Assembly (NCBI GenBank): GCA_044225175.1 | Contig: JBGAJA010000003.1 | Location: 69,428-133,427, forward strand | Source: Candidatus Omnitrophota bacterium | GTDB lineage: Bacteria; Omnitrophota; Gorgyraeia; Zapsychrales; Fredricksoniimonadaceae | DNA length: 64,000 nucleotides | Direction: 5' to 3' | In this document: piece after piece, positions 8,725 through 50,799 of the stretch | Layout of the letters: every line of letters starts with the position of its first letter | How positions within the stretch are numbered: the first letter of the stretch is position 1 | Notes under the pieces: model-generated | Databases searched by the model: none | What the model was told of the DNA's origin: nothing | What the model saw: the letters and a program-made list of their open reading frames with translations, nothing else | Made by a program: the position numbers and the translations under genes

Positions 8725-8864
8725 GTTTTAGATCGTCATGAAACTAGACTTTGTCACCAAAATCTGATATAAGATTACTCTTCCAACCTCAAGGAAATTA
8801 GATACAAGAGATGTAAGGGGTTGTTAAGGGGAACAAAAAACGCAGTTTTCTGAGAGCGAGTTTT

Positions 8865-8938
8865 GTCCCAGTAGCTCAGTTGGATAGAGCATCTGCCTTC
8901 TAAGCAGAGGGTCGCACGTTCGATTCGTGCCTGGGACG
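8865..8938 (+). tRNA. tRNA-Arg (anticodon TCT)
   Basis: GTCCCAGTAGCTCAGTTGGATAGAGCATCTGCCTTCTAAGCAGAGGGTCGCACGTTCGATTCGTGCCTGGGACG folds as a 74-nt cloverleaf with anticodon loop CTTCTAA. Confidence 0.9.
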
Positions 8939-8989
8939 TTTATATTTGTTGAGAATCGAAGCTGTTTTTGATATTCTAGTGCCTCTTGT

Positions 8990-9066
8990 GGTGGCTGTAG
9001 CTCAGTTGGTAGAGTACTTGATTGTGGTTCAAGTTGTCGCGGGTTCAAATCCCGTCAGCCACCCCA
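8990..9066 (+). tRNA. tRNA-His (anticodon GTG) with encoded G(-1) and 3' CCA
   Basis: G-1 plus GTGGCTGTAGCTCAGTTGGTAGAGTACTTGATTGTGGTTCAAGTTGTCGCGGGTTCAAATCCCGTCAGCCACC, then CCA. Anticodon loop TTGTGGT. The extra 5' G pairing with discriminator C is the tRNA-His hallmark. Confidence 0.9.
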
Positions 9067-10629
9067 TATTTCGTTTTTGAGGTATAAATCCTCCCAACCA
9101 GTTGTATTTGCAATAGTTTGCAGAGGTTCGAACCGGTTGTGGAGGATTTTTATTTCAGGAGCGAGTCCCAAAAGGAAAGAAAATTTTTGCTCGACGGTAA
9201 TATCAAGTTTTCGATCTTGTAAGAGAAGGTTCGAACTTAACTCCGCAGTAATACTTTGTTTGACCTGCCAGTCGCCTTCCTGAAACCGTTTTTTGGCCGA
9301 TTCTGCAAAGTTAAAGGCCTTTTCCGCCGCATCAATCCAATTAGGGCTAGAAGAAGCGTTTAAAGAAGACTCTAGGCTTTCTTTTTCTTTTAAGAGGGCG
9401 CTCCGTTTAGCCGCGTATTCTTCTGCAGTGATTTCTTCATTTACTCGGAGGCTGAGAAGGGTATCGAGTTTTCTTATCGCTGTTACCACCTTTTCTTGGA
9501 TGGCATTTTTGCTGTTAAGGGATGCGGTATCATCGTGTTCATTTTCTGCCCTTAGCTGTTTAATAGCCCATTGATGGAAAGGGAGAGGAATGGAAATTTG
9601 ATCCAAGACCCCCAAGATTTGTTGATCTATTTCATCATTGCGGACGGCGGGTTGAGAGCAATCACGATTGATGCGTTTGGTGCAATGGTAATAAGTATAG
9701 TTATGAATATTCCCGTTCTTTTGATGTTTTGTTCGATGCTCAGAAGTGATCGATGCGCCACATTCTCCACAGCGAACTAACCCTCTAAAAGCAAAACCGC
9801 CGCGTTTCTTCAGCTGTTTAACCCGACCGTCCAGAATATCTTGGGCAAGATCAAACTCCGCTTTTGAAATCATGGGTTCATGGACACCTTTATATCTTTT
9901 GCCTTGCCAATCGAATTCGCCATAATAAAAAGGATTTCTTAATATCCTATAAAAACTGCTACGACCAAATTCTTTTCCAGCTCTTCCTCTAAGGCCCATT
10001 TTGGTCGCTCTCAAATAGATTTGTTCAGCCGAACATTTTTCTTCTAACAGGATGTTCCAGACTTGTTTCATGATTGGAAAGAGGTGGGGATCCGAATAGA
10101 TGGGAAGGTGTTCCGGTAAATTATGGCGATTGTTTAAATAACCGATTGGAGGCTTATGGGGGAGCCAACCTTTCTCAGCCTTAGCCCGTTGACCACGTTT
10201 GGTATTTAGGCTTAGATCCAAGATAAACTGATTGGCCATCCCGAATTCGACACTCATCATTAAGACGTTATCGGAAGGAAGGTAGCCTTTTTGGAAGGTC
10301 TGGATGTGCTGTAGGACGCCTTGTTGAAGCATCCAGGTGATATTGCCGCCATCAACCGGATTACGTGCTAGGCGGTCTAGTTTCCAACACAGAATGCCAT
10401 TTGCTTTGCCCTCATGGATCTGCTGGAGCATTTGATTAAAAACTGTTCGACCTGGTGCTTTGGCAGACTTTTCTTCAGTGCAAGTGCCGATGATATTTAA
10501 ATTAAGGTCTTTAGCCAGTCTTTTGAGCTCTTCGATTTGGGAGGGAATAGATGCGACTTGCTTATCTTCATTTTCTGATGATTTGCGTGCGTACAGTAGG
10601 TATTTATTAGCTATAGATAAAGATGTCAT
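9055..10629 (-). mobile_element. Large serine recombinase (resolvase/invertase N-domain, recombinase domain and Zn-ribbon); island integrase
   Basis: The N-terminus LLYARKSSENEDKQVASIPSQIEELK carries the catalytic Ser context of serine recombinases. At 524 aa it has the large C-terminal extension. The gene's 3' end overlaps the last 9-12 nt of tRNA-His. Confidence 0.8.
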
Positions 10630-10799
10630 TTTTCAATACGTTTAAGTAATTTTAGTAGATCCGATTTCTTATATAAACGGTAATTGTTCATAGGATGCCG
10701 GTGGGGTGTTAATTTGCCTTGCTTGTCCCAATTTCGTAGTGTTTGACTGGTTATTTTAAGTAGTTTTGCAGCATCTTTGATGCGAAATAGTTCAGACAT
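10626..10799 (-). CDS. 57-aa MerR/excisionase-family HTH protein, candidate recombination directionality factor
   Basis: MSELFRIKDAAKLLKITSQTLRNWDKQGKLTPHRHPMNNYRLYKKSDLLKLLKRIEK. Its stop overlaps the recombinase start as ATGA. It is below the ORF-track size cutoff. Confidence 0.6.
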   Translation of the reverse strand: MSELFRIKDAAKLLKITSQTLRNWDKQGKLTPHRHPMNNYRLYKKSDLLKLLKRIEK

Positions 10800-10863
10800 T
10801 GGGATCTCCTAACCTTATAAAACATTATAAATTATAACTCGAGTTATCATTGTATTCAACGAC

Positions 10864-11361
10864 TTATTTTTGTGATTCTTTTAAATATGCTTTGGCTTCT
10901 TTAGGTGAATATCCATATTGGAAAAGACGTTCAAATTGGTGGCTGTTTCTGCAACTTTGGTAAGTTAAATCATGACAGTGTCTGCAACCAAAGTATTTAT
11001 CTACTAAATAAAGTATTCCCACGCGTTTTAGGCAAGGAACACTGTTCTTTACAAGGGGACAAATAAACCACCATTTTTTATCTCCTATAAAGTGGCTGGG
11101 GGTAGAGGTGAGTTTGACCTTGTAATCCATAGTATTTCGTCCATCCATTTCTTGATTTGTAAAAGTGTACATAAGGCGCATATATTTATCATTAGGATTA
11201 ATTGATATGATGAATTGAATGCTTCCTAATTCTTGACCAGAAGGGTCTTGCCAAGACATCACCCCTTTCTTTATGCCAGTAAAAAAGCCTTTTTTATTTA
11301 GTCTTACAGTACTTATGGAATTGCACTCTTCCACAGTTAATTTCTTAGCATGACGCCCCAT
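10864..11361 (-). CDS. Cys/His-rich hypothetical protein (possible Zn-binding)
   Basis: 165-aa ORF with CxxxxxxxxC and CRHCH clusters. No known family recognised. Confidence 0.4.
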   Translation of the reverse strand: MGRHAKKLTVEECNSISTVRLNKKGFFTGIKKGVMSWQDPSGQELGSIQFIISINPNDKYMRLMYTFTNQEMDGRNTMDYKVKLTSTPSHFIGDKKWWFICPLVKNSVPCLKRVGILYLVDKYFGCRHCHDLTYQSCRNSHQFERLFQYGYSPKEAKAYLKESQK

Positions 11362-11414
11362 TTGCGATCTCCTTTTTTCTAAATCATCGATGATTTATTT
11401 AATCTTATTTACTT

Positions 11415-12077
11415 TTATGTAACGCTATCTACTGTGCCGTTAAATGTTCTTTTGATTTCATGGATTTTCTTAAGACTTTCATCATCAATATCTTTAAGCT
11501 TTACCATTTCTTCATGCGTGTATATGATCCCATCTTCAAAATGGATACAACCGTCTTTAGACACAAAATGTAATTCCAGCTTCTCTGAGAAAAATCTTCT
11601 GGGGAGCTTTGGGACGTTTGGGACGGCATTAACAAGACTACTTTTCAAAGAGAAGTCAGCAGGTTTGGTTATAGATTCTTTTCGTGTGTGAGTCTCATTA
11701 ACATGTCCCAAGTGTCCCAACACATTCTTCTCAATGACCAATGGTTTATGTTTTTCTGCGGGTTTAATCTTCATTAAAGATCCAGTTCTTGGGTGAAGGG
11801 ATACTTTGTCATTTTTGGTAAAACTATTTTCTTTAATGCCAACAAGTGCGAATATTCGTTGATAATGATTTCCACCCTTGCCGCCGGCATTAACCACACA
11901 TCCAAATGCCCCAGTAGAAGCAACAAAAAGGTGGTTGCCTTTTTGATCATGCCCAGTCTCCGCGCAAGCCGGACACTGGGCAATGATATTATTTCCTTGA
12001 TGTTTGACTTTTGAAAGTTTACTGATGTCCAACATCTTTGAGCCTAACTTTTCTATAACCTTTATGGTCTTTTCCAT
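11415..12077 (-). CDS. Zn-ribbon protein (primase-type CPxC ... FGC zinc-binding domain) encoded downstream of the primase-helicase
   Basis: Motif AQCPACAETGHDQKGNHLFVASTGAFGCVVNAGG resembles the primase zinc-binding domain. The track ORF (to 12206) overlaps the upstream gene by 188 nt, so an internal Met start (12077 or 12035) is more likely. Confidence 0.45.
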   Translation of the reverse strand: MEKTIKVIEKLGSKMLDISKLSKVKHQGNNIIAQCPACAETGHDQKGNHLFVASTGAFGCVVNAGGKGGNHYQRIFALVGIKENSFTKNDKVSLHPRTGSLMKIKPAEKHKPLVIEKNVLGHLGHVNETHTRKESITKPADFSLKSSLVNAVPNVPKLPRRFFSEKLELHFVSKDGCIHFEDGIIYTHEEMVKLKDIDDESLKKIHEIKRTFNGTVDSVT

Positions 12078-14109
12078 TTCTGGGAATGGATCCAGATTTA
12101 GGTGTTGAGAATAATTCCAACATGTATTTTTCCAATTCTTTGGGAATAACGGTTGGAGGCTTTGGATTCCATTGTTTCTCAGCGCAGTATTCAGAATAGG
12201 CGTCAATGATTTCTTGAGTAGTTAGAGTAGAGGGGGCATCTTTTATTACTCTGTCATTGAGGAAATGTCTGATGCTATCGCTTTCTGATAACAACGCTTC
12301 TACGATGGATTTTTGATTATCTTCAAGGTGAATATCACCATATTTATTGATATCATTAAAGATCATAGCAAGGCCATGAAGCGCCCAATTCAGAATGCCA
12401 GATCCTTCTTCTTTGATGAGTAAATCTGCAAAATCAGGGATCTTTTTAATTGGAGGAGGGCATTCAAATCTTACTATTAAAAGACGCCGTCTCCAAGCGC
12501 CGGCATCAGAGTATAAGCGTATTTGAAGGCGAGAATTAGAGGTGATTACAACGCAGAATTTACCTTGGATTGGAAAATTTCCAGTTCCTCCTTTTTGTTC
12601 CGCATCAAACCAATCGCCACCGACTAACCCTTTGATAACGTGGGCACCTTTCTCAGAGAGGAAGTTCCCCGGAACATCAACTCCAACCAAGAGGGTTTTC
12701 TTTAAGTAACGATATAGTTCAAATCGTTCGCTGAGGTGTTTTGTACGTAATTCGGTAAAGTTTGCTCTTCCTATCAGATGTTGAATGATTAAAGATAATT
12801 GTGATTTTCCCCGACCAGATTCTCCATCAAGGATAAGGAATCGCTGAATAAGATTTCTTCCCAATAAGCAGAGGCCAAAATACTTTTGGATGATCGTTGA
12901 ATCAGACGCACTAACAGCAGGGAGGAGTAGTTCATTTAGGAATCTGGGGCATTTTGCATCTTTATCGTATGGGATTGGACATTGGTTTCTCGAATAAAAA
13001 TCAGGAGAGAAACTAACAAAATCTGCTTCATTGGTGTCGTTAAATACAATGATCCCATTTGCAAGATGTACAAATTTCTTATTTTCTTTGTCAAAGGCAT
13101 TTTGTTTTTCACTAATACCTTTTAATTGAGTGACGATATGAGTAAGGCAGGTGTTATACCTTTTTAATTCAAGTGATGGGATTTCTTGTTCGCGGGAGAC
13201 TTCCAATATTCTAGAAGAGATTTCTTGCTTAATTTGATCAATTGAGAGAGTCTCACGGAGGCCTGTTTCTGGATTATAAATATAGAAAGCCTTTTCATTA
13301 GGCTCAAAAAGTAAAATGTGTTCATGGTTGTACGTGCCCGCCCAAAAACATTCATTAATGGCGTAAACAATTCTTTTATCGTTTATATAATATGGTTCAC
13401 CGTAAAGATTAATTAATTCTTTGAGATCCCCCGTTGATTCTATTTCTTCAGACACTGTTTCTTTTTCAAGAGGGGGTTCATAGTAAGGCGTGTTTTGTAT
13501 TATTTCTTCGAAGTCTGATTTTTGTCCTCCAGCTTCTATCCAATCGGAAATATCTTTCACAGCAGTGTTGTTAATATCAGGTAATTCAATTATTTTTAGT
13601 TTGATCCCTTGGGGGGCTAATTTATTAGTAATATCAAATGCATGGTTACGTCCAACCTCATCTTTATCGGGCAGTATAATAACCTCCTGAGCGTCCTTAA
13701 TTGAATCTGTGTAGTTATTTTTCCATTTGCCAGCTCCCATGGCGCATGTAGTGGTAGCGTAACCCCATGAGGCAAGGTTATCTGCATCTTTTTCTCCCTC
13801 GCAAATAAAGATTGGTTGGCCCTGTTTAATCGCTTCAATTATTTCTGGTAAGTGGTATAAAACTGGTTCCACGGTCTCTAACCAGACTGCATTCGCTGAA
13901 GGAGGGGCAGACTTATCATTTGAACAATTCTTTATTAGCGAATAAGATCCCAAAGGCTCACGTTGTTCATACCAACCTTCATTACGTCCATAGGCAAAAA
14001 ATCCATTGCAGGGGCGCCCTTGAAAGAAATCTTTCTTGTCTGTGCGTAAAATTTGAAAAATAATATTTCCTCGAGTGTCTCTGTAGTCATACTTTTTTAC
14101 TATGTTCAT
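12019..14109 (-). CDS. Bifunctional DNA primase (TOPRIM) / SF3 (D5-like) helicase, replication protein of an integrative element
   Basis: TOPRIM motifs IFICEGEKDADNL and IILPDKDEVGRN; Walker A GESGRGKSQLSL in the C-terminal half. Confidence 0.75.
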   Translation of the reverse strand: MNIVKKYDYRDTRGNIIFQILRTDKKDFFQGRPCNGFFAYGRNEGWYEQREPLGSYSLIKNCSNDKSAPPSANAVWLETVEPVLYHLPEIIEAIKQGQPIFICEGEKDADNLASWGYATTTCAMGAGKWKNNYTDSIKDAQEVIILPDKDEVGRNHAFDITNKLAPQGIKLKIIELPDINNTAVKDISDWIEAGGQKSDFEEIIQNTPYYEPPLEKETVSEEIESTGDLKELINLYGEPYYINDKRIVYAINECFWAGTYNHEHILLFEPNEKAFYIYNPETGLRETLSIDQIKQEISSRILEVSREQEIPSLELKRYNTCLTHIVTQLKGISEKQNAFDKENKKFVHLANGIIVFNDTNEADFVSFSPDFYSRNQCPIPYDKDAKCPRFLNELLLPAVSASDSTIIQKYFGLCLLGRNLIQRFLILDGESGRGKSQLSLIIQHLIGRANFTELRTKHLSERFELYRYLKKTLLVGVDVPGNFLSEKGAHVIKGLVGGDWFDAEQKGGTGNFPIQGKFCVVITSNSRLQIRLYSDAGAWRRRLLIVRFECPPPIKKIPDFADLLIKEEGSGILNWALHGLAMIFNDINKYGDIHLEDNQKSIVEALLSESDSIRHFLNDRVIKDAPSTLTTQEIIDAYSEYCAEKQWNPKPPTVIPKELEKYMLELFSTPKSGSIPRNGKDHKGYRKVRLKDVGHQ

Positions 14110-30974: not shown

Positions 30975-32990
30975 ATGAAAACTAAGAAAATCATCGTATT
31001 AGGTGCTACAGGTTACGTGGGAGGAAGACTTGTTGCTAAGCTGCTTGAAGAAGGATATCAAGTTAGAGCAACAGGGCGCTCTAAGGAGAAATTAAAAAGC
31101 AGATTCTGGGCTGATCATCCGCAAGTCGAATTATTTGATGCTGATGTTCAAAACTTGGATTCCTTGCGTAAGGCTCTTAAAGACATGGATATTGCCTACT
31201 ACCTTGTTCATTCCATGAATCCACAGAGTTCTGATTTCGAAGAAGCAGATCGACTCGCTGCGAACAACATGATTAAAATCTCCCAAGAATGTAACGTTAA
31301 AAGAATTATTTATTTGGGAGGCTTAGGTGAAGATAACCCACAATTAAGCAAACATTTAAAATCCCGCCATGAAGTTTGCGAAATACTAAACTCTGGTCCT
31401 GTTCCAGTTACAACGTTAAGAGCAGCCATGATTATTGGTTCTGGTAGTGCTTCTTTTGAAATTTTAAGATATCTAGTTGAACGTCTTCCAATCATGATTA
31501 CCCCTCGCTGGGTCAACACCCCCAATCAACCGATTGGCATTCGAAACGTCATAGAGTATCTTTGTGGCTGCGCGCAAAAAGATGAAACATCAGGGCAAAC
31601 GTACGATATTGGTGGTAAAGAAATTCTTTCGTATTTGGAATTGATGAAGATTTATGCGGACGTTGCGGGTTTAGCCCCAAGAATCTTTATTCAAGTACCC
31701 ATCTTAACCCCTCGATTAAGTTCTCTATGGATTCATTTGGTAACACCCGTGCCCAGCTATATCGCACGACCTTTAGCTGAAGGATTAAGAAATCCAGTCA
31801 TTTGTAAAGATCTTCGTATCAGAGAAATTATTCCTCAAGATTTATTGGATTGCAAAGAGGCGATAACACGAGCCTTACATCTTGTTCATCTTAATGATGT
31901 TAAAACGTACTGGGCGGATGCAGGAAAGGTCCCTCAAATTGCTATAGCGCAAAGGGGAGATCCCAACTGGGCAGGAGGAACGCTCTTACAGGATAAAAGA
32001 ACGCGAATTGTCAAAGCTTCTAAAGAAAGAATATGGGAGGTGATTTCTCATATTGGTGGTGAAACAGGTTGGTATCATGGAACGTGGCTATGGGGGCTTC
32101 GAGGTTCTCTTGATCGACTCGTGGGTGGTGTAGGTTCTTCCCGAGGACGAAGAAATGCGGTAGAAATAGCCGTGGGTGATGTACTCGATTTTTGGCGAGT
32201 GATCGGTGTAAAAAATAATGAGTCCTTAACCCTTGCTGCAGAAATGAAGGTTCCAGGAATAGCTACTTTAGATTTTCAGATCAAAGAAATTGATGCTACG
32301 ACTTGCGAGCTTACTCAACATGCCCGTTTTAGACCCAGAGGATTATTTGGTTTAGTGTATTGGTATTGCTTGGTTCCACTTCACGAATATATCTTTGGGG
32401 GAATGATTAAGAAGGTAGCTGTTCTTTCCACCAAAAAGATACTCGTTATTATTTTCTTAACAGCTTTTTTAAGTATGTCTCCGGCTTGGGCTTATAAAAT
32501 TGGTCCGGTAGAATTTAACGAGAAATATAATAGAGATTCGAACGCATTGTCTTTAAGAGGAGCTGGGCTTAAGAAATTCTTAGGAATACAAGTTGTGGCA
32601 GCAGCGCTTTATATGCCTGAGAATATTTCATCAGCAGACGCTCTGTCTGATTGTCCCAAACGTCTGGAAGTTGTCTATCTTCAGAATATTCCCAAGCAAG
32701 AGCTCCAACGAGCAACGGTTAAAGGTATTCGTAGCAATGTAAGCAAAAATGAATATGGTATTCTGGAACCAAAGATCAATCTTATTAATAATGCTTACAC
32801 CGACGTGCGAAAAGGGGATAGGATTTCAATTGCTTATATTCCATCAAAAGGTTTACAAATTACTGTTAATAGCGATGATAAAGGGTTTGTTGAAGGTCCT
32901 GAGATCGCCCGTGCATTTTTTGCTATTTGGTTAGGTGAACATCCGGTAGATCCTGTAATTAAAGATCTTCTCTTGGGAGGAAAGAAATGA
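30975..32990 (+). CDS. Composite ORF: NAD(P)-binding SDR-type domain plus DUF2867, fused in frame to a signal-peptide-bearing chalcone-isomerase-like (CHI-like) domain
   Basis: N-terminus IIVLGATGYVGGRLV (Rossmann fold). DUF2867-like segment GWYHGTWLWGLRGSLDRLVGGVGSSRGRR ... HEYIFGGM. This is followed directly by MIKKVAVLSTKKILVIIFLTAFLSMSPAWA (signal-peptide-like) and a CHI-like domain. Internal Met at 32403. Confidence 0.55.
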   Translation: MKTKKIIVLGATGYVGGRLVAKLLEEGYQVRATGRSKEKLKSRFWADHPQVELFDADVQNLDSLRKALKDMDIAYYLVHSMNPQSSDFEEADRLAANNMIKISQECNVKRIIYLGGLGEDNPQLSKHLKSRHEVCEILNSGPVPVTTLRAAMIIGSGSASFEILRYLVERLPIMITPRWVNTPNQPIGIRNVIEYLCGCAQKDETSGQTYDIGGKEILSYLELMKIYADVAGLAPRIFIQVPILTPRLSSLWIHLVTPVPSYIARPLAEGLRNPVICKDLRIREIIPQDLLDCKEAITRALHLVHLNDVKTYWADAGKVPQIAIAQRGDPNWAGGTLLQDKRTRIVKASKERIWEVISHIGGETGWYHGTWLWGLRGSLDRLVGGVGSSRGRRNAVEIAVGDVLDFWRVIGVKNNESLTLAAEMKVPGIATLDFQIKEIDATTCELTQHARFRPRGLFGLVYWYCLVPLHEYIFGGMIKKVAVLSTKKILVIIFLTAFLSMSPAWAYKIGPVEFNEKYNRDSNALSLRGAGLKKFLGIQVVAAALYMPENISSADALSDCPKRLEVVYLQNIPKQELQRATVKGIRSNVSKNEYGILEPKINLINNAYTDVRKGDRISIAYIPSKGLQITVNSDDKGFVEGPEIARAFFAIWLGEHPVDPVIKDLLLGGKK

Positions 32991-33538
32991 GTCAAATGTT
33001 TAAGGCAAGAGACATTGCGCTTTTATTGTTCTCCATTATGGTCATTTATTTCTTGGCGCCATCCTTAGATCGCAATCAAGGCATTTATGTTAGTACGATG
33101 TTTGCCATTATTAACATTTGTTCTGCTCGTCCCCTCTGGGATAAACCCCATCGTATCAAATATTTGAGTTATGTATTTGTATCAGTGGTCACCTATTATA
33201 TTTTATTTAATGATGAGCCATGGGGTATGATTTTTCACGGCGGTTTGTTTGAGAGTTCTCCTTGGCCTTTGATTGTTTGCTCTCTACTCATGACCTTCAA
33301 TGGGTGGTTATTATTTAATAATTGGCGCCAACGGCGTTTATATGCTTTGATCACATTGGGCATCCAAATTCCAATTGCCATTTTTATCGGCAGCCAGTAT
33401 TTGCAAGAGTCATTCACCGGTATGTCTCACGGGCTAAAATTCGTTGAGCACTATTCAGGATCCTGGCAAGTTTGGCAATTTGAATGGATGTTAACATATT
33501 ATCTTCCTATATATGCACTGAGTCGTCTCAAAGCATAA
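32987..33538 (+). CDS. Membrane protein, hypothetical
   Basis: ATGA overlap with the upstream gene; 5-6 hydrophobic helices. Confidence 0.45.
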   Translation: MSQMFKARDIALLLFSIMVIYFLAPSLDRNQGIYVSTMFAIINICSARPLWDKPHRIKYLSYVFVSVVTYYILFNDEPWGMIFHGGLFESSPWPLIVCSLLMTFNGWLLFNNWRQRRLYALITLGIQIPIAIFIGSQYLQESFTGMSHGLKFVEHYSGSWQVWQFEWMLTYYLPIYALSRLKA

Positions 33539-33668
33539 AGTCCCACCAGTGCAAAACTAAGCGTTTTTTCAATTACTTTTATAAATTACTTGAATAATGG
33601 ATTAAGTTTTGCCAATATGACTCGTTTTCAATCTACAATTTTTTACAAAATAACTAAAAGGAACTGCC

Positions 33669-36401
33669 ATTAAAGACTATATTTCTCTGACTCTCAAGGA
33701 AGATGTACGTTTTCTAACCACACTTTTAGGAGACAACATCCGCGAACAGGAAGGTGAGGCTTTCTTTAATAAGATTGAAAGCATCCGCAAGCTTGCTATC
33801 CAAATCCGCGAAGGCGGCAACAACGATAAAATTGAGACTCAACGAAAGATGATTGATTCGTTGTCGCTGGAGGAGGCTTACAAAGTTGCCCGCGCATTTA
33901 GTATTTATTTCCAGCTGGTCAATATTGCGGAGGAGCGTCAGCGTATCCGCCGTCTGCGTGAATACGCCAAAGACCAATCCAGCCTTCTTGACATGTCCCT
34001 TAGAAAAGTTTTTCATGATTTGAAAGAAATGAAAGTTCCAGCTAGTCGGATTACTGAACTTTTGGGAAACATGGAAATCGAACTTGTTCTAACCGCCCAT
34101 CCTACTGAAGCGAAACGCCATTCAGTGCTTGATCATCTATTACATATTGCTGTTGATTTAGCCAGGCTAGGAAACAATGATCTGCCTGTTATTGAACGCC
34201 ATCAAAATATCGAAAGTATCAAAGCTACGTTAGAGATTCTCTGGCAAACCTCTGAGATCCGCTTGCGTAAAGTGGAGGTGGTGGACGAAATCGATCATAC
34301 GTTGTTTTATTTCCGTCGAACTATTCTCAAACTTGTTAATAATGTTTACGATAAGGCTGTTGCTGAATTTCAGCATTCTTATGGGGATCGTGATCTTAAA
34401 TTTAAACCGTTTTTATATTTTGGTTCATGGGTGGGGGCTGACCGTGATGGGAATCCTAATGTTACGGCTGAAGTGACGAAAGAAGCAGTGCGCCGCCAGA
34501 AGGCATTGATACTGAATTTTTACCAGGATCGCATTCAAGGTTTTATCCGTGTGCTCAGTCAGTCGATGTCGCTTGCGAAAGCCAGTAAATCCCTATTAGA
34601 TTCCCTTAAAAAAGACGCACGTCTTTTGCCTGATGTGGCCAAGACGCTGGAAGGCTATGAATCCACCGAAATTTACCGCAAGAAGGTTACCTACATTCAT
34701 CGTAAACTGCATAATACATTAAGCGGCAAAGGTCATGGTTATCGATCAGCAGATGAATTTAAGGCTGATATTCTGCTCATGCAGCAAAGTCTTGAGAAAA
34801 ATAAAGGCGTATTGGCTAGTCAGTATTTTTTGAAATATTTGCTCGTGCAGGTGGAAACGTTTGGTTTTTATCTGGCGAGAATGGATTTTCGTGATCATAG
34901 CCGCAAGATTCGCCAGACGCTGGTAGAAATGTTTCCAGAAGACAATGCCATGGATAAAGATTTTCTTTTGAATCAAATTGAGCAGGAGAAAAAGAAAAGC
35001 CGCACTAAGATCTTTAGTCCTGAATCAAAAGACATTTTGGATCAATTGAAAGCCTTTCATGAAATTCAAAAGAGCGGCGGAAGTCAGTTAGTTAGCGATT
35101 ACATCATCAGCATGACGGAAAACACCAATGATATGCTGGCCCTATTTTATTTGGCCAAACGTCAGGGATTGATTAAGTTTAAAAATAAGAAAGTGGTAAA
35201 AGCTGATATCGGCATTGTTCCGTTATTTGAAGTCATTGATATTCTCGATAGTAGCCATGAAATTCTTGATGAGTTATTTTCAATTCCAATGTATCGCGAG
35301 TATCTCAAAGCGCGGGGCGATTTTCAGCAAGTGATGTTGGGATATTCTGACAGCAGTAAAGATGGTGGTTATCTTGCAGCCAACTGGAAGATTTATATCG
35401 CACAGAAAAAGCTTTTGGAGACAGCTCAAAAACATAACGTTAAACTGCAAATTTTTCATGGTAAGGGTGGCACCATTGATCGTGGAGGTGGCCAGTCTCA
35501 CAAAGCAATTTTGGCTCAGCCAGCCTCCGCCCCATTGGGACAAATTAAAATTACTGAACAGGGGGAGGTCATTTCACAAAAGTATTCCAATCCTGTTACC
35601 GCTGAACGAAATATAGAACAGCTAATAACCGCAGTCTTGTGGACAAATCTCGTCAGTCGTAAAGAAGTGAAAAATAATCCCCGCATTCCCGTTTGGGAAA
35701 AACGCCTGGAGGAGTTGTCGGCCTATTCTCTTAGTTTTTATCGACAGCTGATTGGAACTGAAGGATTTGTTGAGTTTTATAATCAGGCAACGCCGGTACA
35801 AATTTTAGAATTTGCAAAGATTGGTTCGCGTCCCGTCCGGCGAGGCAAGAGAGAATTAAAAGATCTAAGGGCTATTCCGTGGGTCTTCAGCTGGATTCAA
35901 TCCCGTTACATCATTTCATCCTGGTATGGAGTAGGATACGCTATTGAACGATTTATTGAAGAATATGGCCCAGAGGCTATTGAAGAATTACGTGAAATGT
36001 ACGCAGAGTGGCCGTATTTTAGATCGGTGATTGATAACGCGCAGATTTCGTTGGAAAAGACAGAAATGTATATTGCCGACCAGTATGGAGTGCTAGTCGA
36101 AGATAAAGTTATTCGAGACAACATCATGCAGCAGATCCATAGCGAATATAAGCGTTCAATTGAAAAGTTGATCGAGGTTTCACTTGATAAAAAATTGCTT
36201 GATTCTAAACCAATTCTTAAGAATTCAATCCGCCTGCGCAATCCGTATATCGACCCCTTACATTACATTCAAATCCGTTTCTTAAAAGAAATCCGTCAGA
36301 AAGAATTCTTGTCTCAGAACGAAAGTGTTCGCATCAAGATGTATGAAACACTCTTGCTCACGATGAATGGAATCGCAGCAGGGATGAAGAGTACAGGTTA
36401 G
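33669..36401 (+). CDS. ppc: Phosphoenolpyruvate carboxylase
   Basis: LAHPTEAKRHS, VGYSDSSKDGG and FHGKGGTIDRGGG motifs. The conserved N-terminus (LKEDVRFLTTLLGDNIREQEGEAFFNKIESIRKL) lies in frame upstream of the first ATG (33849). The likely start is ATT 33669 (SD AAAAGGA at 33656-33662) or CTG 33687. Confidence 0.85.
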   Translation: MKDYISLTLKEDVRFLTTLLGDNIREQEGEAFFNKIESIRKLAIQIREGGNNDKIETQRKMIDSLSLEEAYKVARAFSIYFQLVNIAEERQRIRRLREYAKDQSSLLDMSLRKVFHDLKEMKVPASRITELLGNMEIELVLTAHPTEAKRHSVLDHLLHIAVDLARLGNNDLPVIERHQNIESIKATLEILWQTSEIRLRKVEVVDEIDHTLFYFRRTILKLVNNVYDKAVAEFQHSYGDRDLKFKPFLYFGSWVGADRDGNPNVTAEVTKEAVRRQKALILNFYQDRIQGFIRVLSQSMSLAKASKSLLDSLKKDARLLPDVAKTLEGYESTEIYRKKVTYIHRKLHNTLSGKGHGYRSADEFKADILLMQQSLEKNKGVLASQYFLKYLLVQVETFGFYLARMDFRDHSRKIRQTLVEMFPEDNAMDKDFLLNQIEQEKKKSRTKIFSPESKDILDQLKAFHEIQKSGGSQLVSDYIISMTENTNDMLALFYLAKRQGLIKFKNKKVVKADIGIVPLFEVIDILDSSHEILDELFSIPMYREYLKARGDFQQVMLGYSDSSKDGGYLAANWKIYIAQKKLLETAQKHNVKLQIFHGKGGTIDRGGGQSHKAILAQPASAPLGQIKITEQGEVISQKYSNPVTAERNIEQLITAVLWTNLVSRKEVKNNPRIPVWEKRLEELSAYSLSFYRQLIGTEGFVEFYNQATPVQILEFAKIGSRPVRRGKRELKDLRAIPWVFSWIQSRYIISSWYGVGYAIERFIEEYGPEAIEELREMYAEWPYFRSVIDNAQISLEKTEMYIADQYGVLVEDKVIRDNIMQQIHSEYKRSIEKLIEVSLDKKLLDSKPILKNSIRLRNPYIDPLHYIQIRFLKEIRQKEFLSQNESVRIKMYETLLLTMNGIAAGMKSTG

Positions 36402-36564: not shown

Positions 36565-39500
36565 TTAAGATTTACTTGCTGTAAGACAAGGGAGGGTAAA
36601 AGAAAACACTGAACCTTTACCATATTCTGAAGTTACAATCATCTTGCCTCCATGCCGCTCTACGATTTTTCTACATATTGCTAAACCAATCCCAATCCCC
36701 GAGTATTCTTGGCCATGGAGGCGGTTGAAAATATCGAAGATTTTATTTAAATCTTCTGGCTTAATTCCTATTCCATTGTCTGTGATGGAAATAAGCCATT
36801 CTTGATCTTGTCGAACGGCAGAGACATTGATAAGAGGGGTCGTATTACTTTTATATTTTAAAGCATTACTGATCAAGTTTTGGAAAAGTTGTATAAGTTG
36901 GGTTTTATTGCCTAAAACTACCGGAAGTTTATCGAAGGTGATCTTAGCACCAGTTTTTTTGATCTTAATTTGTAGATTAGTTAGAACCTGCTTCAAGCAT
37001 TGTTTGCAATCAACTTCTTTTAAAGGGGTTTTTACCTGTTCAATTTGGCAGAATTCAAGCAATTTGCTGATAAGTTCCTGCATGTGCGAAACGCTTGAGT
37101 TAATGTGGCTTATAAATTCTTTGGCTTTCTCATCTAATACTTTACCTACATATTTCTTCTCCAAGAGTTGAAGATAAGAGGAGACCACATTCAGTGGTTC
37201 TTTAAGATCATGAGAGGCCATAAAAGCAAATTGTTCAAGATCGGTATTACTCCGTTTAAGCTCTACGGCATCATTTCGAAAGCGGTTGAGGGATTGCCTG
37301 TGCTTAGTCACATCTTCAATTCCAATCAAGATTAAAGCATCTTTACCCTGTTTTTGTTCTAATCGTGTCGCATTAAGCAGCATGATACGATGACCCAGGT
37401 TTTGAAAATTGTGCTCAATTTCATAATTATCAATTCTTTGCTTTTGTGGCAATATTTCTTCAAGTAGAGTGCGTAATTCTGCAATGTCCCACTGTCCATT
37501 TCCTAAATTGTAGAAACATTTGCCTTCTGTCTCTTTCTCTAAGACTTCAAACGTCTTATAGAAGGAATGGTTAGCGATTTTAACCCGTAGGTCTTTGTCT
37601 AAGACGACCAAGTTTTCTCTTGCTGTCTGTACCATAGCCCTACAAAAATCATTCATTTCTTGAAGATGCAAATTAGTACGTTTAATTCCTTCGATGTCAT
37701 TTAATGTAAGAATAGCTCCTTCAATCTTATTATCGGCAGTTTTATTAGGAAGCACCCGAAGCATAAACCACTGTCCATCTGAAGTCTGTATTTCTTGTTC
37801 TTTAACAATCACTTTATGGATAACATCAAGAAGGATGCGATTTAAGTTGATAGCTTTGATAGCATGTAAATCATTCAGTGGCCTATTCAATTCATTTGGA
37901 AGGAATTGAAGAATTTGAGAAGCAGCCTCATTAAAGCGACGGATCTTAAGATCGTTTCCGATCATGATGATTGGGATTTTAGTGCCGTTAAGCAAATTTG
38001 TTAAATCATTGTTAAGTAAGTTTATCTCCCTACTTTGGGTCTGAAGTTCTTCATTGATCGTCGTGAGTTCTTCATTGGCAGATTGAAGTTCTTCCTTGGA
38101 CGTTTCTAATTCTTCATTAGTGCTTTGCAGTTCTTCATTGCTGGATAGAATTTCTTCATTAGCTGCATCCTGCTGTTCAATGATGGATTGAAGATATTCT
38201 CGGGCAGCAGTCAAATCCCTTCTTAATTGGATAATTTCCTTTTTCTGTTCATTAGGAGTTTGATTTTTTTCTTGAGAAACAGGAGCTTCAATATCTACGG
38301 GTTTTGAGGCTTCAAACAAGATTAAGAAACAGCTTTCATTTGTTTCCGGTAATTTAACCGGAATGATCTCGAGATGGGCAACATGTTCTTTAGATCCATC
38401 TTTAAATTTTATATTAGGCCTATTAACTGTGACATGGGTTTCTTTGGCTTCTCGGATCGCTGTTCCAAGTTCCAATGCCAAGTTTTCTTTAGCCATTCTA
38501 AGAATATGAAAAACTGCTTCACCTGTGGGAGGCTCTAAATACAAATTAGTCTTTCCTCGAAACTGTAGAATCTCAAGATTTTCATTAATCAATACTCCAG
38601 AAGGGGAGTAACGCCCAACAATGATGCGATCAGCTTCTTTTTGGAAATCTGCAGTTGTAGGTACTCTTTGACTATTAGCAGGGGAAGAAAGAACGTAATT
38701 TTTTGTATTCTTATCCATATAAAAATACGTCTCAGGACGAAGAGCAATAAGCTTTTTAGTATAAATATTAAGTTTTTTATCCAGGACATTGAATAAATTG
38801 GAATGAATGCCTACTGTTTCTGAATTTCCCAACACCAGAAAACCATTCGGATTAAGAGCGTAATGAAAAGTTTTCAAGACTCTTTGCTGGAGAGGATTGC
38901 TTAAGTAAATTAATAAATTACGGCATGTGATAACATCCACTCTGGAAAAGGGCGGGTCAGCCATAACGTTTTGTTTGGCGAATATGCACATTTCTCTAAT
39001 GAATTTATTGATACGGTATCCCCCAGTCTCTTTTGTAAAAAAACGGCGAAGACGACTTTCTGATACCTCTGTTTCAATACTTTCGGTGTAAAGCCCCAAC
39101 CGGGCCTTTTCGATGCATTTAGGATCATTGATATCTGTTCCAAAAATTTGGATGGTTGGAGGGGAAGGTTTATGATCAAAGTATTCAATAAGTAGCATAG
39201 CCAGAGAATATGCTTCTTGACCTGTAGAGCAACCAGGTGCCCACATACGGATAATAGAAGGATTATTTTTTGTTATCTCAGGCAGAACTTTATTTTTGAT
39301 TGCTTCAAATATTTCAGGATCTCTAAAGAAGCTGGTCACATTAATCAGGAGATCATGATGAAGAAGTTCGATCTCTTGGTGATTATTTTCCATGTAAGTC
39401 AAATATTCTGCCAGGGTTTGCTTGGCATGAAGGGTCATACGCCGCATAATCCTGCGTTTGATAGTGGTGTCTTTATAATTGGTAAAGTCAATACCAGTGG

Positions 39501-40179
39501 TTGTTCGCAAAAGGGACAGGATTTTATGGAAGTCATTTTCTTGTTCTGGAATTCTAGAATCTTCATCAGCAGTAGCTTTATTGCATAGATAAGGATGACG
39601 GACAATGTTGACTAATTCACGTGCAATTTCTTCAGGAGGCATAATAAAATCGATGGAACCGCTTTCAACAGCATTGCGAGGCATCAGCTGATATTCCGCT
39701 GACTTTTCATTTTGAGCAAAAGTAATGCCACCCGATGCTTTGATCTCTGCTACTCCTACAGTGCCATCGGATCCTGTGCCTGAAAGAATGACACCAATAG
39801 CTCGGTTCTTTTGCTCTGCTAAAGATCGGAATAAAAGATTAATAGGTAAATGTGGGGCTTGGGAATCTCCCCGAGGAGACAGCTTAAAAATATCCCCATT
39901 CAGTTCTACATTAACATTAGGAGGAGTTACATAAACATGATTAGGTTCTATCGTCATGCCATTTTTTATTTCACTTACTGGAATGTTCGTTGTTTTCGAT
40001 AGAATACTGGTGAGTTGACTTGGAAAATTTGGAGCAAGGTGCTGAACAAACACGAAGGCCATTTGAGGGTCTTCAGGTATGTTTGCTAGGAACTTTGTAA
40101 ATGCCTCTAAACCGCCTGCTGAAGCACCGATACCAACTATGGGAAATATTCTTTTTAATTTATTCATGACAAATATCAA
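36565..40179 (-). CDS. CheB methylesterase-CheR methyltransferase-PAS-coiled-coil-histidine kinase fusion protein
   Basis: CheB motif PIVGIGASAGGLEAF; CheR AdoMet-binding motif (RMWAPGCSTGQEAYS); PAS segments; heptad-like NEEL repeats (SNEELQSTNEELETSKEELQSANEELTTINEELQ); HisKA ASHDLKEPLN; HATPase_c GIGIGLAICRKIVERHGG. Confidence 0.8.
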   Translation of the reverse strand: MIFVMNKLKRIFPIVGIGASAGGLEAFTKFLANIPEDPQMAFVFVQHLAPNFPSQLTSILSKTTNIPVSEIKNGMTIEPNHVYVTPPNVNVELNGDIFKLSPRGDSQAPHLPINLLFRSLAEQKNRAIGVILSGTGSDGTVGVAEIKASGGITFAQNEKSAEYQLMPRNAVESGSIDFIMPPEEIARELVNIVRHPYLCNKATADEDSRIPEQENDFHKILSLLRTTTGIDFTNYKDTTIKRRIMRRMTLHAKQTLAEYLTYMENNHQEIELLHHDLLINVTSFFRDPEIFEAIKNKVLPEITKNNPSIIRMWAPGCSTGQEAYSLAMLLIEYFDHKPSPPTIQIFGTDINDPKCIEKARLGLYTESIETEVSESRLRRFFTKETGGYRINKFIREMCIFAKQNVMADPPFSRVDVITCRNLLIYLSNPLQQRVLKTFHYALNPNGFLVLGNSETVGIHSNLFNVLDKKLNIYTKKLIALRPETYFYMDKNTKNYVLSSPANSQRVPTTADFQKEADRIIVGRYSPSGVLINENLEILQFRGKTNLYLEPPTGEAVFHILRMAKENLALELGTAIREAKETHVTVNRPNIKFKDGSKEHVAHLEIIPVKLPETNESCFLILFEASKPVDIEAPVSQEKNQTPNEQKKEIIQLRRDLTAAREYLQSIIEQQDAANEEILSSNEELQSTNEELETSKEELQSANEELTTINEELQTQSREINLLNNDLTNLLNGTKIPIIMIGNDLKIRRFNEAASQILQFLPNELNRPLNDLHAIKAINLNRILLDVIHKVIVKEQEIQTSDGQWFMLRVLPNKTADNKIEGAILTLNDIEGIKRTNLHLQEMNDFCRAMVQTARENLVVLDKDLRVKIANHSFYKTFEVLEKETEGKCFYNLGNGQWDIAELRTLLEEILPQKQRIDNYEIEHNFQNLGHRIMLLNATRLEQKQGKDALILIGIEDVTKHRQSLNRFRNDAVELKRSNTDLEQFAFMASHDLKEPLNVVSSYLQLLEKKYVGKVLDEKAKEFISHINSSVSHMQELISKLLEFCQIEQVKTPLKEVDCKQCLKQVLTNLQIKIKKTGAKITFDKLPVVLGNKTQLIQLFQNLISNALKYKSNTTPLINVSAVRQDQEWLISITDNGIGIKPEDLNKIFDIFNRLHGQEYSGIGIGLAICRKIVERHGGKMIVTSEYGKGSVFSFTLPCLTASKS

Positions 40180-47293: not shown

Positions 47294-48772
47294 ATGACAC
47301 AATCCAAATGCAAAACAGGTATTGGTGAGTTGGATAATATTTTAAATGGGGGGTTACCTCTTCATCGATTTTATCTTATTCAAGGAGACCCTGGGGTCGG
47401 AAAAACAACATTGGCTTTGCAGTTTCTTTTGCAAGGTTTAGCTGAAAAGGAGAAGGTTTTATATATCACATTATCTGAAACCAAAGAAGAGATTCAGATG
47501 GTCGCTCAATCACATGGCTGGTCTTTAAATGGGGTAGAGGTTATAGAACTTTCTACCTTAGAGGAAAACCTCTCTCCTGAGAAACAGAATACCCTTTTTC
47601 ATCCCTCTGAAGTCGAATTAAACCAAACCATTAAATTAATCCTAGATAAGGTCAAAGAATTTAAACCTTCTCGAGTCGTATTTGACTCTTTATCAGAAAT
47701 CCGCCTTTTATCACAAAATTCATTGCGTTATCGAAGGCAGATGCTGGGTTTAAAACAATATTTTGCTAAACTTAACTGTACTGTGTTGGTATTAGATGAC
47801 TGTACGGCAGGAGAAGAGTTACAGATTCGAAGTATCGCTCACGGGGTCATTATTCTTGAGAAGAATATCTTGGAATATGGAGTTTATCGTAGGCAGTTAC
47901 ACGTAGATAAAATTAGAGGAAGTCTTTTTAGAGAGGGGCATCACGATTTTATCATTCGTCCAGGCGGAATCTCTGTATTCCCTCGCTTGATTGCGAAAGA
48001 AAATAGCAAGACGTTTGTGAGGGAAACTGTTTCTACAGGCTTAAGAGAGTTTGATGATCTTCTAGGAGGAGGAATGCAAAGAGGAACGAGTAATTTGTTC
48101 TTAGGACCTCCGGGGGTTGGAAAATCTACTTTGGCTATGCGTAGTGCAGTTGCTTTAGCTGATCGTGGAGAAGATGTTTCAATCTATTGTTTTGATGAAA
48201 ACATAGGAACATATACTTCGAGAGCTGCAGCTTTGGGCATGGATATGAGTAAATATATAAAATCGGGGAAGATAAATATTACACAAATTAATGTCTCTGA
48301 GCTTTCGCCAGGAGAGTTTGCTTACCAAATCAAAGAGAATGTGGAGAAGAAAAATACAAGGCTAGTCATTATTGATAGTTTAAATGGATATCTAAATGCC
48401 ATGACTGAAGAGAGTCATCTCATTGTTCAACTCCATGAATTATTTGCGTATTTAAGTCATCAGGGAGTTATTTCTATCTTAATTGTAACCAATCAGGGTC
48501 TGTTTGGCAGTGCTATGAGTACCCCTGTTGAAGCAACTTACTTAGCGGATACAGCGGTCATCCTGCGGTTTTTTGAGACAAGGGGGGCTGTGAAAAAAGC
48601 TATTTCTATCATTAAGAAAAGAAGCAGCAGTATCGAAGATTCTATTCGCGAATTTAGCATTGATAAAGATGGCATTCAGATTGGAAAACCGCTCATCGAA
48701 TTTAAAGGTATTTTAACAGGAAATCCGACTTATTATGGGCTAGAACAGGATATTCTAAAAAGGACTTCATGA
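47294..48772 (+). CDS. kaiC: KaiC-like double RecA-fold ATPase (circadian-clock protein KaiC homolog)
   Basis: Two P-loops: GDPGVGKTTLALQF and GPPGVGKSTLAMRS. GIGELDNILNGGLP and TGLREFDDLLGGGM are KaiC/RadA-like motifs. Confidence 0.75.
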   Translation: MTQSKCKTGIGELDNILNGGLPLHRFYLIQGDPGVGKTTLALQFLLQGLAEKEKVLYITLSETKEEIQMVAQSHGWSLNGVEVIELSTLEENLSPEKQNTLFHPSEVELNQTIKLILDKVKEFKPSRVVFDSLSEIRLLSQNSLRYRRQMLGLKQYFAKLNCTVLVLDDCTAGEELQIRSIAHGVIILEKNILEYGVYRRQLHVDKIRGSLFREGHHDFIIRPGGISVFPRLIAKENSKTFVRETVSTGLREFDDLLGGGMQRGTSNLFLGPPGVGKSTLAMRSAVALADRGEDVSIYCFDENIGTYTSRAAALGMDMSKYIKSGKINITQINVSELSPGEFAYQIKENVEKKNTRLVIIDSLNGYLNAMTEESHLIVQLHELFAYLSHQGVISILIVTNQGLFGSAMSTPVEATYLADTAVILRFFETRGAVKKAISIIKKRSSSIEDSIREFSIDKDGIQIGKPLIEFKGILTGNPTYYGLEQDILKRTS

Positions 48773-50799
48773 AACTAGAAGAGCGTGTTCTTATTCTTGC
48801 CCCATTGGGAGACGATGCTCAGAATGCTGCAAATGTGCTTAGTCAATCCAATATTTTTGGCGAAATTTGTTTCAATTTAGAGGAATTAAACCAGAAATTC
48901 TTGAAAGGAGCAGGGGCTCTTATAATTACCGAAGAATCTTTAACGCATTTAGAAACAATGACTTTTATAGATTCATTGAAAGGACAGGAAAAATGGTCTG
49001 ATATTCCAATCATTATTATTACCAGTGGTGGAGAAACTACTGCTTTAAGTGTATCTATGATCAATTTATTTAGCGGGGTTGGAAATATTAATCTTTTGGA
49101 AAGGCCATTGAGGAAAATCACTTTAACATCCGCTGCGCAAGTAGCCTTGCGTACTCGGCAAAGGCAATTTCAAATGAAAGATTTATTAGAGGCCCACAAG
49201 AAAGCGGAGCAAGAAATTATACATTATGCCAATGAACTTCTAGAAGCTAATAAAGGTATGGAGCTGTTAGCTTCGATTGTATCTTCCTCAGATGATGCCA
49301 TTATCAGTAAAAATCTTGAGGGAATTATTATTAGTTGGAATATTGGAGCTGAAAGAATCTTTGGTTATAAGGCCCACGAGGTTATTGGTAAGCCTATCCA
49401 TATATTGTTTCCTAAGGACCGCTTCAACGAGGAGCCTGTTTTCTTAGAGCGGATCAAAAAAGGAGAAAGAATAGACCACTATGACACTGTCCGCCAATGT
49501 AAAGATGGGCGCCTAGTGGACATTTCTTTGACTATTTCACCCATTAGAGATGACAAGGGGGTCATTATTGGCGCCTCCAAGATTGCTAGAGATGTTACTC
49601 AACGCAAGAAACAAGAAAAGGAATTAAGAAGCCTCACCTTTCATCTAGAACAACGTGTGGAAGAGCGCACACACCTTTTGGAGGAGCAGGCTGAACGTCT
49701 GAGGCAATTGGCAGTTGAATTAACTGAGGTCGAGCAAAAAGAGCGCCGTCGGCTGGCTGAAGTGTTGCATGATCATTTGCAGCAATATTTGGTTGCAGCC
49801 AAGATGCGACTAGAGATGGTTGAACGTAAGGCAATTAAAGTTGATAAAGGGGGACTTGAGGATGCTCGTTTGTATATTGAGAATGCTATCGAATCTTCTC
49901 GTGTGTTAACCGCAGAACTGCGTCCCCCCGTACTTTATGAGGGTGGATTAACCGCAGGGTTACGTTATTTAGGTCAGAAAATGCAAGATCAGCATAAGCT
50001 GCGGGTCCATCTTTCCTTCTTAGAGGACATAGAGCCTGGTTCTGAATTGATCAAAGTCATGGTCTATCAATGTGTCCAGGAATTGCTATTTAATGCGGTT
50101 AAGTATGCCAACGTTAATGAGATTTTTGTAACAGCGACTAGGCTAGAGAAGAATCATATCCAGGTTAAGGTAGAAGATCATGGGGTTGGCTTTAATGTAA
50201 AGAGCCTAGGAAACAATACGACTGGTGGTTTTGGCTTATTTAGTATTCGAGAAAGAATAAAAGCCTTAGGGGGGGAATTTAAAATATCATCAATACCGCA
50301 GGAAGGTTCAGTATTTACTCTTATCGTTCCAGATAGAATCCCAGTCCCTGTTATAGGAAAAATAGATTTCAACGAAGAAAAATTATTTATGCGAGAAAGA
50401 GTACATAAAGAAGGAATAGTTGTGCTGGTTGCTGATGATCATTTAATTGTTCGACAGTCTATAGCCAGTCTTTTGATGTCCCAGACATTTATTAAGGAGG
50501 TTATTGAAGCGGGAAATGGAGAGGAAGCGATACGAAAAGCTGAATCTTCTGATCCTGATATCATTCTTATGGATGTGAACATGCCTATCATGAATGGTAT
50601 TGAAGCAACTAGAGTTTTGAGTAACAGAAAATCTCGTTCTAAGGTGATAGGTCTTTCAGTACAAGCCAAAAGTGAGATGGCACAAGCCATGAAAGATGCA
50701 GGTGCAGTTGCTTACTTCAATAAAGGTGACAACACGACTAGTTTGATTGATGCCATAAGAGACTTGGCCTACCCGCAATTGCCTTCTTCAAATAATTAA
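48769..50799 (+). CDS. Hybrid sensor kinase: receiver-like N-terminal domain, PAS, HisKA_3-type dimerisation domain, HATPase_c, and C-terminal receiver
   Basis: ATGA overlap with kaiC. H-box RRRLAEVLHDHLQQYL (NarX/HisKA_3 type). C-terminal REC domain VLVADDH...ILMDVNMP. The N-terminal 120 aa are receiver-like, but Glu replaces the acceptor Asp. Confidence 0.7.
   Translation: MKLEERVLILAPLGDDAQNAANVLSQSNIFGEICFNLEELNQKFLKGAGALIITEESLTHLETMTFIDSLKGQEKWSDIPIIIITSGGETTALSVSMINLFSGVGNINLLERPLRKITLTSAAQVALRTRQRQFQMKDLLEAHKKAEQEIIHYANELLEANKGMELLASIVSSSDDAIISKNLEGIIISWNIGAERIFGYKAHEVIGKPIHILFPKDRFNEEPVFLERIKKGERIDHYDTVRQCKDGRLVDISLTISPIRDDKGVIIGASKIARDVTQRKKQEKELRSLTFHLEQRVEERTHLLEEQAERLRQLAVELTEVEQKERRRLAEVLHDHLQQYLVAAKMRLEMVERKAIKVDKGGLEDARLYIENAIESSRVLTAELRPPVLYEGGLTAGLRYLGQKMQDQHKLRVHLSFLEDIEPGSELIKVMVYQCVQELLFNAVKYANVNEIFVTATRLEKNHIQVKVEDHGVGFNVKSLGNNTTGGFGLFSIRERIKALGGEFKISSIPQEGSVFTLIVPDRIPVPVIGKIDFNEEKLFMRERVHKEGIVVLVADDHLIVRQSIASLLMSQTFIKEVIEAGNGEEAIRKAESSDPDIILMDVNMPIMNGIEATRVLSNRKSRSKVIGLSVQAKSEMAQAMKDAGAVAYFNKGDNTTSLIDAIRDLAYPQLPSSNN

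Follow-up and report, generated by a model that had tools for sequence, protein, structure and literature searches.

The DNA analyzed here is a stretch of 64,000 nucleotides (nt) from a Candidatus Omnitrophota bacterium (contig JBGAJA010000003.1, positions 69,428 to 133,427), which in its full length we call the window and to whose first letter all positions refer. On its plus strand lies ppc, the gene of phosphoenolpyruvate carboxylase (PEPC), and the conserved N-terminus of this enzyme is encoded upstream of the first canonical start codon of the frame. The public protein P0001 (NCBI, 272,723-bp contig) is the product of 850 amino acids (aa) starting at this codon, ATG 33849. Our analysis suggests instead that the gene starts at an ATT codon 60 codons further upstream. 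The features of the locus are the following:

33617..33673 (+): upstream open reading frame (uORF) of 18 codons (MTRFQSTIFYKITKRNCH) in another frame, from ATG 33617 to TAA 33671-73; read from the sequence
33651..33653 (+): in-frame TAA closing the ppc frame upstream; read from the sequence
33656..33662 (+): Shine–Dalgarno-like AAAAGGA, 6 nt (ACTGCC) upstream of ATT 33669; read from the sequence
33669..33671 (+): ATT, the codon at which ppc is proposed to be initiated in reality, its homolog in the closest relatives being the ATG/Met start; from the alignment
33669..36401 (+): full-length ppc coding sequence for PEPC, 910 codons plus stop; from NF000584, the alignment with E. coli PEPC and PF00311
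33672..33848 (+): 59 codons of conserved PEPC N-terminus that are omitted from the 850-aa annotation; from codon-position mismatches and outgroup identities
33849..33851 (+): first canonical ATG, an internal Met61, and the start in the public annotation (P0001, 850 aa); without a properly spaced Shine–Dalgarno sequence

The ppc frame and its product

Between the TAA at 33651-33653 and ATG 33849 the ppc frame has 65 sense codons without a single ATG, GTG or TTG, as the sequence-only reading of this DNA had stated. With the in-frame codon frequencies of this genome such a run has a probability of P ~0.02; the GC content is 38.9%. The codons following the stop are CTA AAA GGA ACT GCC ATT(33669) AAA GAC TAT ATT(33681) TCT CTG(33687), and from ATT 33669 up to ATG 33849 there are 60 codons. 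Their conceptual translation is LKGTAIKDYISLTLKEDVRFLTTLLGDNIREQEGEAFFNKIESIRKL... (also given as IKDYISLTLKEDVRFLTTLLGDNIREQEGEAFFNKIESIRKL...). Near-cognate codons in this part are ATT 33669, ATT 33681 and CTG 33687. The earlier reading had named ATT 33669 and CTG 33687 as the only candidate starts; both are present, and its list has to be extended by the second in-frame ATT at 33681. The AAAAGGA motif that it had placed 6 nt before ATT 33669 is indeed found there.

Among the 47 large open reading frames (ORFs) of the window, ppc has the longest start-less open extension, the next one being 38 codons long. When the eight longest start-less extensions were scanned with Pfam, ppc was the sole case in which a conserved domain enters the extension, and no domain reached into any of the other seven. 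Hence the 64 kb stretch does not make general use of non-canonical starts.

The product translated from ATT 33669 has 910 aa and scores 857.8 bits against NF000584, the NCBIfam equivalog model for PEPC, covering profile positions 1-898 and lying above the curated equivalog cut-off of 815 bits. The 850-aa form reaches only 813.2 bits over positions 52-898, just below the cut-off, and lacks 51 conserved profile positions. Residues 7-883 of E. coli PEPC (1FIY) align to residues 8-910 of the ATT-started product, and Pfam PF00311 is matched over all of its 919 positions (1-919), beginning at residue 14 of the stop-to-stop translation. We examined the catalytic motifs TAHPTE, GYSDSxKDxG and FHGRGGxxxRGG and the C-terminal NTG-type end and found all of them, the product carrying VLTAHPTEAKR, MLGYSDSSKDGGYLAANW (GYSDSSKDGG), FHGKGGTIDRGGG and the C-terminal GMKSTG. 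The 910-codon ORF is intact and has no second lesion. Judged by its sequence the product thus appears to be an ordinary bacterial Ppc in every respect tested: compared with the bacterial family (PF00311, NF000584; E. coli structures 1FIY, 1JQN and 1QB4) it is alike over the full length, catalytic motifs included, and the start codon alone differs. Since 60 conserved residues are missing from it and its score falls under the equivalog cut-off, the public 850-aa annotation for this genome is almost certainly wrong.

Coding constraint and the start codon in relatives

We compared the 59 codons following the ATT with the orthologous locus L081 (66% identity) and found 19, 12 and 37 mismatches at codon positions 1, 2 and 3, respectively; the next 70 codons of ppc gave 20, 8 and 37. 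At 23 of the 40 identical residues of the N-terminal stretch the window and L081 use different codons. With seven outgroup proteins the window shares 52-68% identity in the N-terminus and its closest relative P0002 shares 54-66%; over the rest of the gene the values are 57-66% and 56-66%. This comparison, which included the relatives with ATG, P0002 and P0121, revealed no rate acceleration in the N-terminus or in the whole gene, and all residues that are invariant in the nine-sequence alignment are kept in the N-terminus of the window. Neither further lesions nor a relaxed constraint, the signs of a decaying gene, were found. By these measures the 60 upstream codons still evolve as coding sequence. 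The excess of third-position mismatches, the unaccelerated rate and the retained invariant residues exclude that the N-terminus was lost long ago or that ppc is an old pseudogene. The sequence-only reading had proposed that a conserved PEPC N-terminus precedes ATG 33849 and that a start at this ATG would remove it. The alignment with E. coli PEPC, the full-length Pfam match, the constraint on the upstream codons and the score of the 850-aa form below the cut-off all agree with this proposal.

The closest relative, P0002 (911 aa, 82% identity), begins MKNYISLILKEDVRFL. P0121, a second member of the P0002 cluster (922 aa as called), reads ...QQPMKNYISL (STQQPMKNYISLILKEDVRFL); both proteins come from JGI sample 3300050046, where they are encoded on contigs of 10,529 bp and 5,086 bp. 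The counterpart in the window reads IKDYISLTLKEDVRFL, i.e., I-KDYISLTLKEDVRFL. In the alignment Ile1 of the window (ATT 33669) falls on Met1 of P0002 and on Met12 of P0121, and ATT 33669 is therefore homologous to their Met codon. In P0121 this codon must be ATG, since the Met is internal to the called ORF.

The comparison of start codons among orthologs had been set beforehand as a check. We fetched 81 orthologous loci, 78 of which were informative. One was left out as it had no anchor, and L013 and L019 were left out as their open frame reaches the end of the fetched stretch (L013 shows no upstream start within it; L019 has an ATG upstream of the motif). All 78 informative loci have a canonical start (ATG, GTG or TTG) either at the conserved LKxDVRFL motif or upstream of it, and the window is the sole exception. 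As the closest relatives have Met at this position and all informative loci have a canonical start, the change from ATG to ATT is a singleton on this lineage. The starts of the relatives together with the coding constraint bear out the earlier claim that the true ppc start lies upstream of ATG 33849. The suggestion that ATT is a programmed rare start serving to down-regulate ppc fared differently and finds no support, given the Met codon of the two closest relatives and the 78 canonical starts.

Proposed initiation at ATT 33669 and the alternatives

The AAAAGGA sequence in front of ATT 33669 resembles the initiation signals of other genes of the window, in which AAAGGA(G) is found 4-8 nt before the ATG (e.g., at 10864, 12019, 28534, 48769, 54034 and 56977); AAAAGGA itself is rare, occurring only 18 times on the plus strand of the window. 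ATG 33849 has no comparable Shine–Dalgarno sequence at a proper distance. RNA folding of 33640-33720 revealed no special structure (z = 0.07), and the initiation region is accordingly predicted to be unstructured. Being aligned with the Met start of the relatives and having a good Shine–Dalgarno sequence at 6 nt, ATT 33669 is by far the best start candidate. As in a gene started by AUU, no canonical in-frame start precedes the conserved N-terminus and the Shine–Dalgarno sequence lies at a functional distance.

Initiation could in principle take another route, either at ATT 33681 or CTG 33687, which are both in frame, or through ribosomes delivered by the 18-codon uORF. The TAA of the uORF shares one base with ATT 33669 (ATTAA), and where relatives have ATG-AAA this position would form a classic ATGA coupling overlap, so that termination and reinitiation at ATTAA might be envisaged, or a +1 shift at AAA-AGG. 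The distance from the Shine–Dalgarno sequence is, however, 18 nt for ATT 33681 and 24 nt for CTG 33687, which is beyond the workable range. The uORF itself is not preceded by a Shine–Dalgarno sequence and may have arisen by chance, a short ORF with ATG being unremarkable and expected in an AT-rich spacer. In the spacer 33539-33668 no promoter or terminator was found under the criteria of the scan. A possible promoter can be read by eye (TTGCCA 33609-14, 19 nt, TACAAT 33634-39), and transcription from it would begin only after the uORF ATG. The frameshift at AAA-AGG was set aside, AGG not being a rare codon (6.3 per 1000 codons in this genome). On the whole we regard any such route as extremely unlikely.

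The explanation that we favor, and to which we lean with some reserve, is that the real start is at 33669, where an ancestral ATG is now ATT, that initiation takes place there with reduced efficiency and yields a normal 910-aa PEPC, and that the 850-aa coding sequence is an artefact. The ancestral ATG would have been converted into ATT on this lineage by a single G-to-T change, while the ribosome-binding site AAAAGGA and the whole coding sequence stayed intact. Positioned by Shine–Dalgarno pairing, the initiator tRNA would accept AUU as a near-cognate start codon, with an efficiency well under the AUG level (in reporter systems of E. coli about 1-15%) that initiation factor 3 (IF3) would lower further. 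The outcome would be less PEPC and not a truncated PEPC. The 850-aa public protein would arise because gene callers accept only ATG, GTG and TTG.

Initiation at AUU has precedents. In Enterococcus faecalis ebpA starts with ATT, had been wrongly annotated from an ATG 120 bp downstream, and is expressed at a lower level owing to the ATT (PMC4447247). The resemblance to ppc is close, the annotated ATG lying tens of codons inside the real ATT-started ORF and the annotation error having the same origin (PMC4447247). For ebpA, however, the start was proven by mutagenesis and lacZ fusions, whereas that of ppc is proposed from sequence and its ATT is not shared with relatives. The closest evolutionary analogue is found in clade-specific start-codon variants and in rsbW of Listeria monocytogenes, of which spontaneous ATG-to-ATT/ATA mutants show a translation that is cut and not abolished; here too a single-base change from ATG to ATT occurred within a lineage in an otherwise intact gene (PMC13068326). 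What sets rsbW apart is that its change arose under selection by a defined stress and that its effect was quantified with reporters (PMC13068326). The E. coli genes infC and pcnB likewise combine AUU initiation behind a Shine–Dalgarno sequence with low translation and discrimination against AUU by IF3 (10.1101/063800, PMC3592434). The AUU of infC is, however, conserved and part of an autoregulatory loop, since the infC product is IF3 itself, while the ATT of ppc is a singleton without such a logic. As to the strength of the codon, one E. coli system put AUU at 1-2% of AUG (10.1101/063800), and in another it was 6-8 times less efficient than AUG (PMC3592434). The sensitivity of AUU mRNAs to IF3, low temperature and ppGpp is particularly high in vitro (PMC5499595). 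In our literature search we came across no report of an ATT start for PEPC and nothing useful on N-terminal truncations of the bacterial enzyme.

The analysis establishes the ancestral position of the start, the Shine–Dalgarno sequence, a constraint of the coding type on the 60 codons, and that the change is unique. What we infer is that ATT is present in the organism, not merely in the assembly, and that AUU is used in vivo. Several points weigh against our explanation. The use of AUU in vivo is itself such an inferred step, and the near-cognate efficiencies were measured in E. coli, Enterococcus and Listeria, not in Omnitrophota. A selected regulatory start would be expected to be conserved among relatives, which the ppc ATT is not, and selection for a weak start is not apparent from sequences in which every relative lacks the ATT. 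An intact ORF with a Shine–Dalgarno sequence is equally expected if the change is an error or very recent. As our explanation and these two rivals all predict this same picture, sequence alone cannot separate them. To these points come the nature of the record, which looks like a metagenome-assembled genome (MAG) of an uncultured member of the Omnitrophota, and the result of an exact look-up of the annotated 850-aa product, which returned no other contig and hence no independent confirmation of the base.

The last two points bear on the possibility of a base-call or consensus artefact, in which case the organism would have ATG at 33669-33671 and the T at 33671 would be an assembly error or a minority strain variant. 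That a single base is changed precisely at the codon where the relatives have ATG, in a ppc gene that is otherwise intact, would fit such an artefact. Further searches brought no second copy of the base: the 90% cluster of the annotated product is a singleton, and neither a metagenome scan with P0002, nor a degenerate DNA pattern encoding the N-terminal peptide and beginning with ATN, nor a scan of the genome-contig collection with the ppc protein of the window gave a match. On the other hand, a poor consensus is not apparent elsewhere in the 64 kb window, where the ORFs of 600-1200 aa are intact and the seven other scanned start-less extensions gave no N-terminal truncation, and the G-to-T change in GCCATGAAA is not in a context typical of homopolymer errors. 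Substitution errors are also rare per base in a well-covered assembly. We therefore consider an artefact unlikely.

Alternatively, the start could have been lost recently, leaving ppc a strong hypomorph or null allele that gives almost no product, or a probably misfolded protein shorter by 60 residues from ATG 33849, as a first step of pseudogenization. The start codon has been lost relative to every relative and AUU is a poor start codon. Moreover, some lineages of the Omnitrophota are reduced and depend on a host, and anaplerotic genes might become dispensable in them. Against a start loss stand the 910 codons without a second lesion and the rate of evolution, unaccelerated relative to the outgroups in the N-terminus and in the rest of the gene, and with a codon-position pattern of purifying selection the loss would have to be very recent. 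The truncated start at ATG 33849 would, in addition, be without a Shine–Dalgarno sequence, and its product, short of the 51 conserved profile positions, does not reach the equivalog cut-off. A start loss thus seems to us likewise unlikely, perhaps slightly more so than an artefact. Most likely, then, the ATT is either a weak start codon of isolated occurrence or an error in base calling, and not a new mechanism.

Other genes of the window and possible meaning of the ATT codon

Directly upstream of ppc lies a gene (30975-32990) whose 671-aa product fuses an NmrA/NAD(P)-binding domain with DUF2867 and a chalcone-isomerase-like domain. Its overlap with the gene of a 183-aa protein (32987-33538) without a Pfam family match amounts to 4 nt. 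Convergent with ppc, on the minus strand at 36565-40179, a single polypeptide of 1204 aa combines a CheB methylesterase, a CheR methyltransferase, two PAS domains, HisKA and HATPase; the list of ORFs gives it a TTG start, and an ATG five codons further in is equally possible. The gene at 4424-6673 encodes an enzyme I of the PtsP type (that of the nitrogen phosphotransferase system) with a GAF domain at the N-terminus, and the closest relatives of this protein (73-79% identity) are proteins of Omnitrophota MAGs. Nearly all named best matches of both PEPC and PtsP are MAGs labeled 'Candidatus Omnitrophica/Omnitrophota'.

After the genes tRNA-Arg(tct) (8864-8939) and tRNA-His(gtg) (8991-9066) come, on the minus strand, the gene of a large serine recombinase (9055-10629), ending in a stop codon that overlaps the 3′ end of tRNA-His, and the gene of a P4-family primase (12019-14109). 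The region 8864-14109 looks like a mobile element integrated at tRNA-His. At 47294-48772 there is a KaiC-like double-domain ATPase, the stop of which overlaps the start of a PAS-HisKA_3-HATPase-receiver hybrid kinase (48769-50799); 47294-50799 is a KaiC-coupled two-component module in a non-cyanobacterial genome.

For ppc a more far-reaching interpretation would be that the ATT is real, fixed and adaptive, this lineage throttling its anaplerotic PEPC at initiation. AUU would then make the synthesis of PEPC sensitive to the IF3 level, the growth state and ppGpp, maybe assisted by termination and reinitiation from the 18-codon uORF (ATTAA); the model for the sensitivity to IF3 and ppGpp is provided by the in vitro results with AUU mRNAs (PMC5499595). 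If this were true, ppc would be the first reported case of a regulatory AUU start in an enzyme of central carbon metabolism, but we consider it very unlikely.

No new mechanism is revealed, as AUU initiation and its mis-annotation have already been documented (ebpA, infC, pcnB), and the value of the finding lies in the correction of an annotation and in a modest curiosity. The case of ppc shows how callers limited to ATG, GTG and TTG can silently truncate a gene. If the base is real, we have here a natural change from ATG to ATT in a central anaplerotic enzyme of an uncultured phylum, which would imply that the synthesis of PEPC is strongly reduced in this organism.

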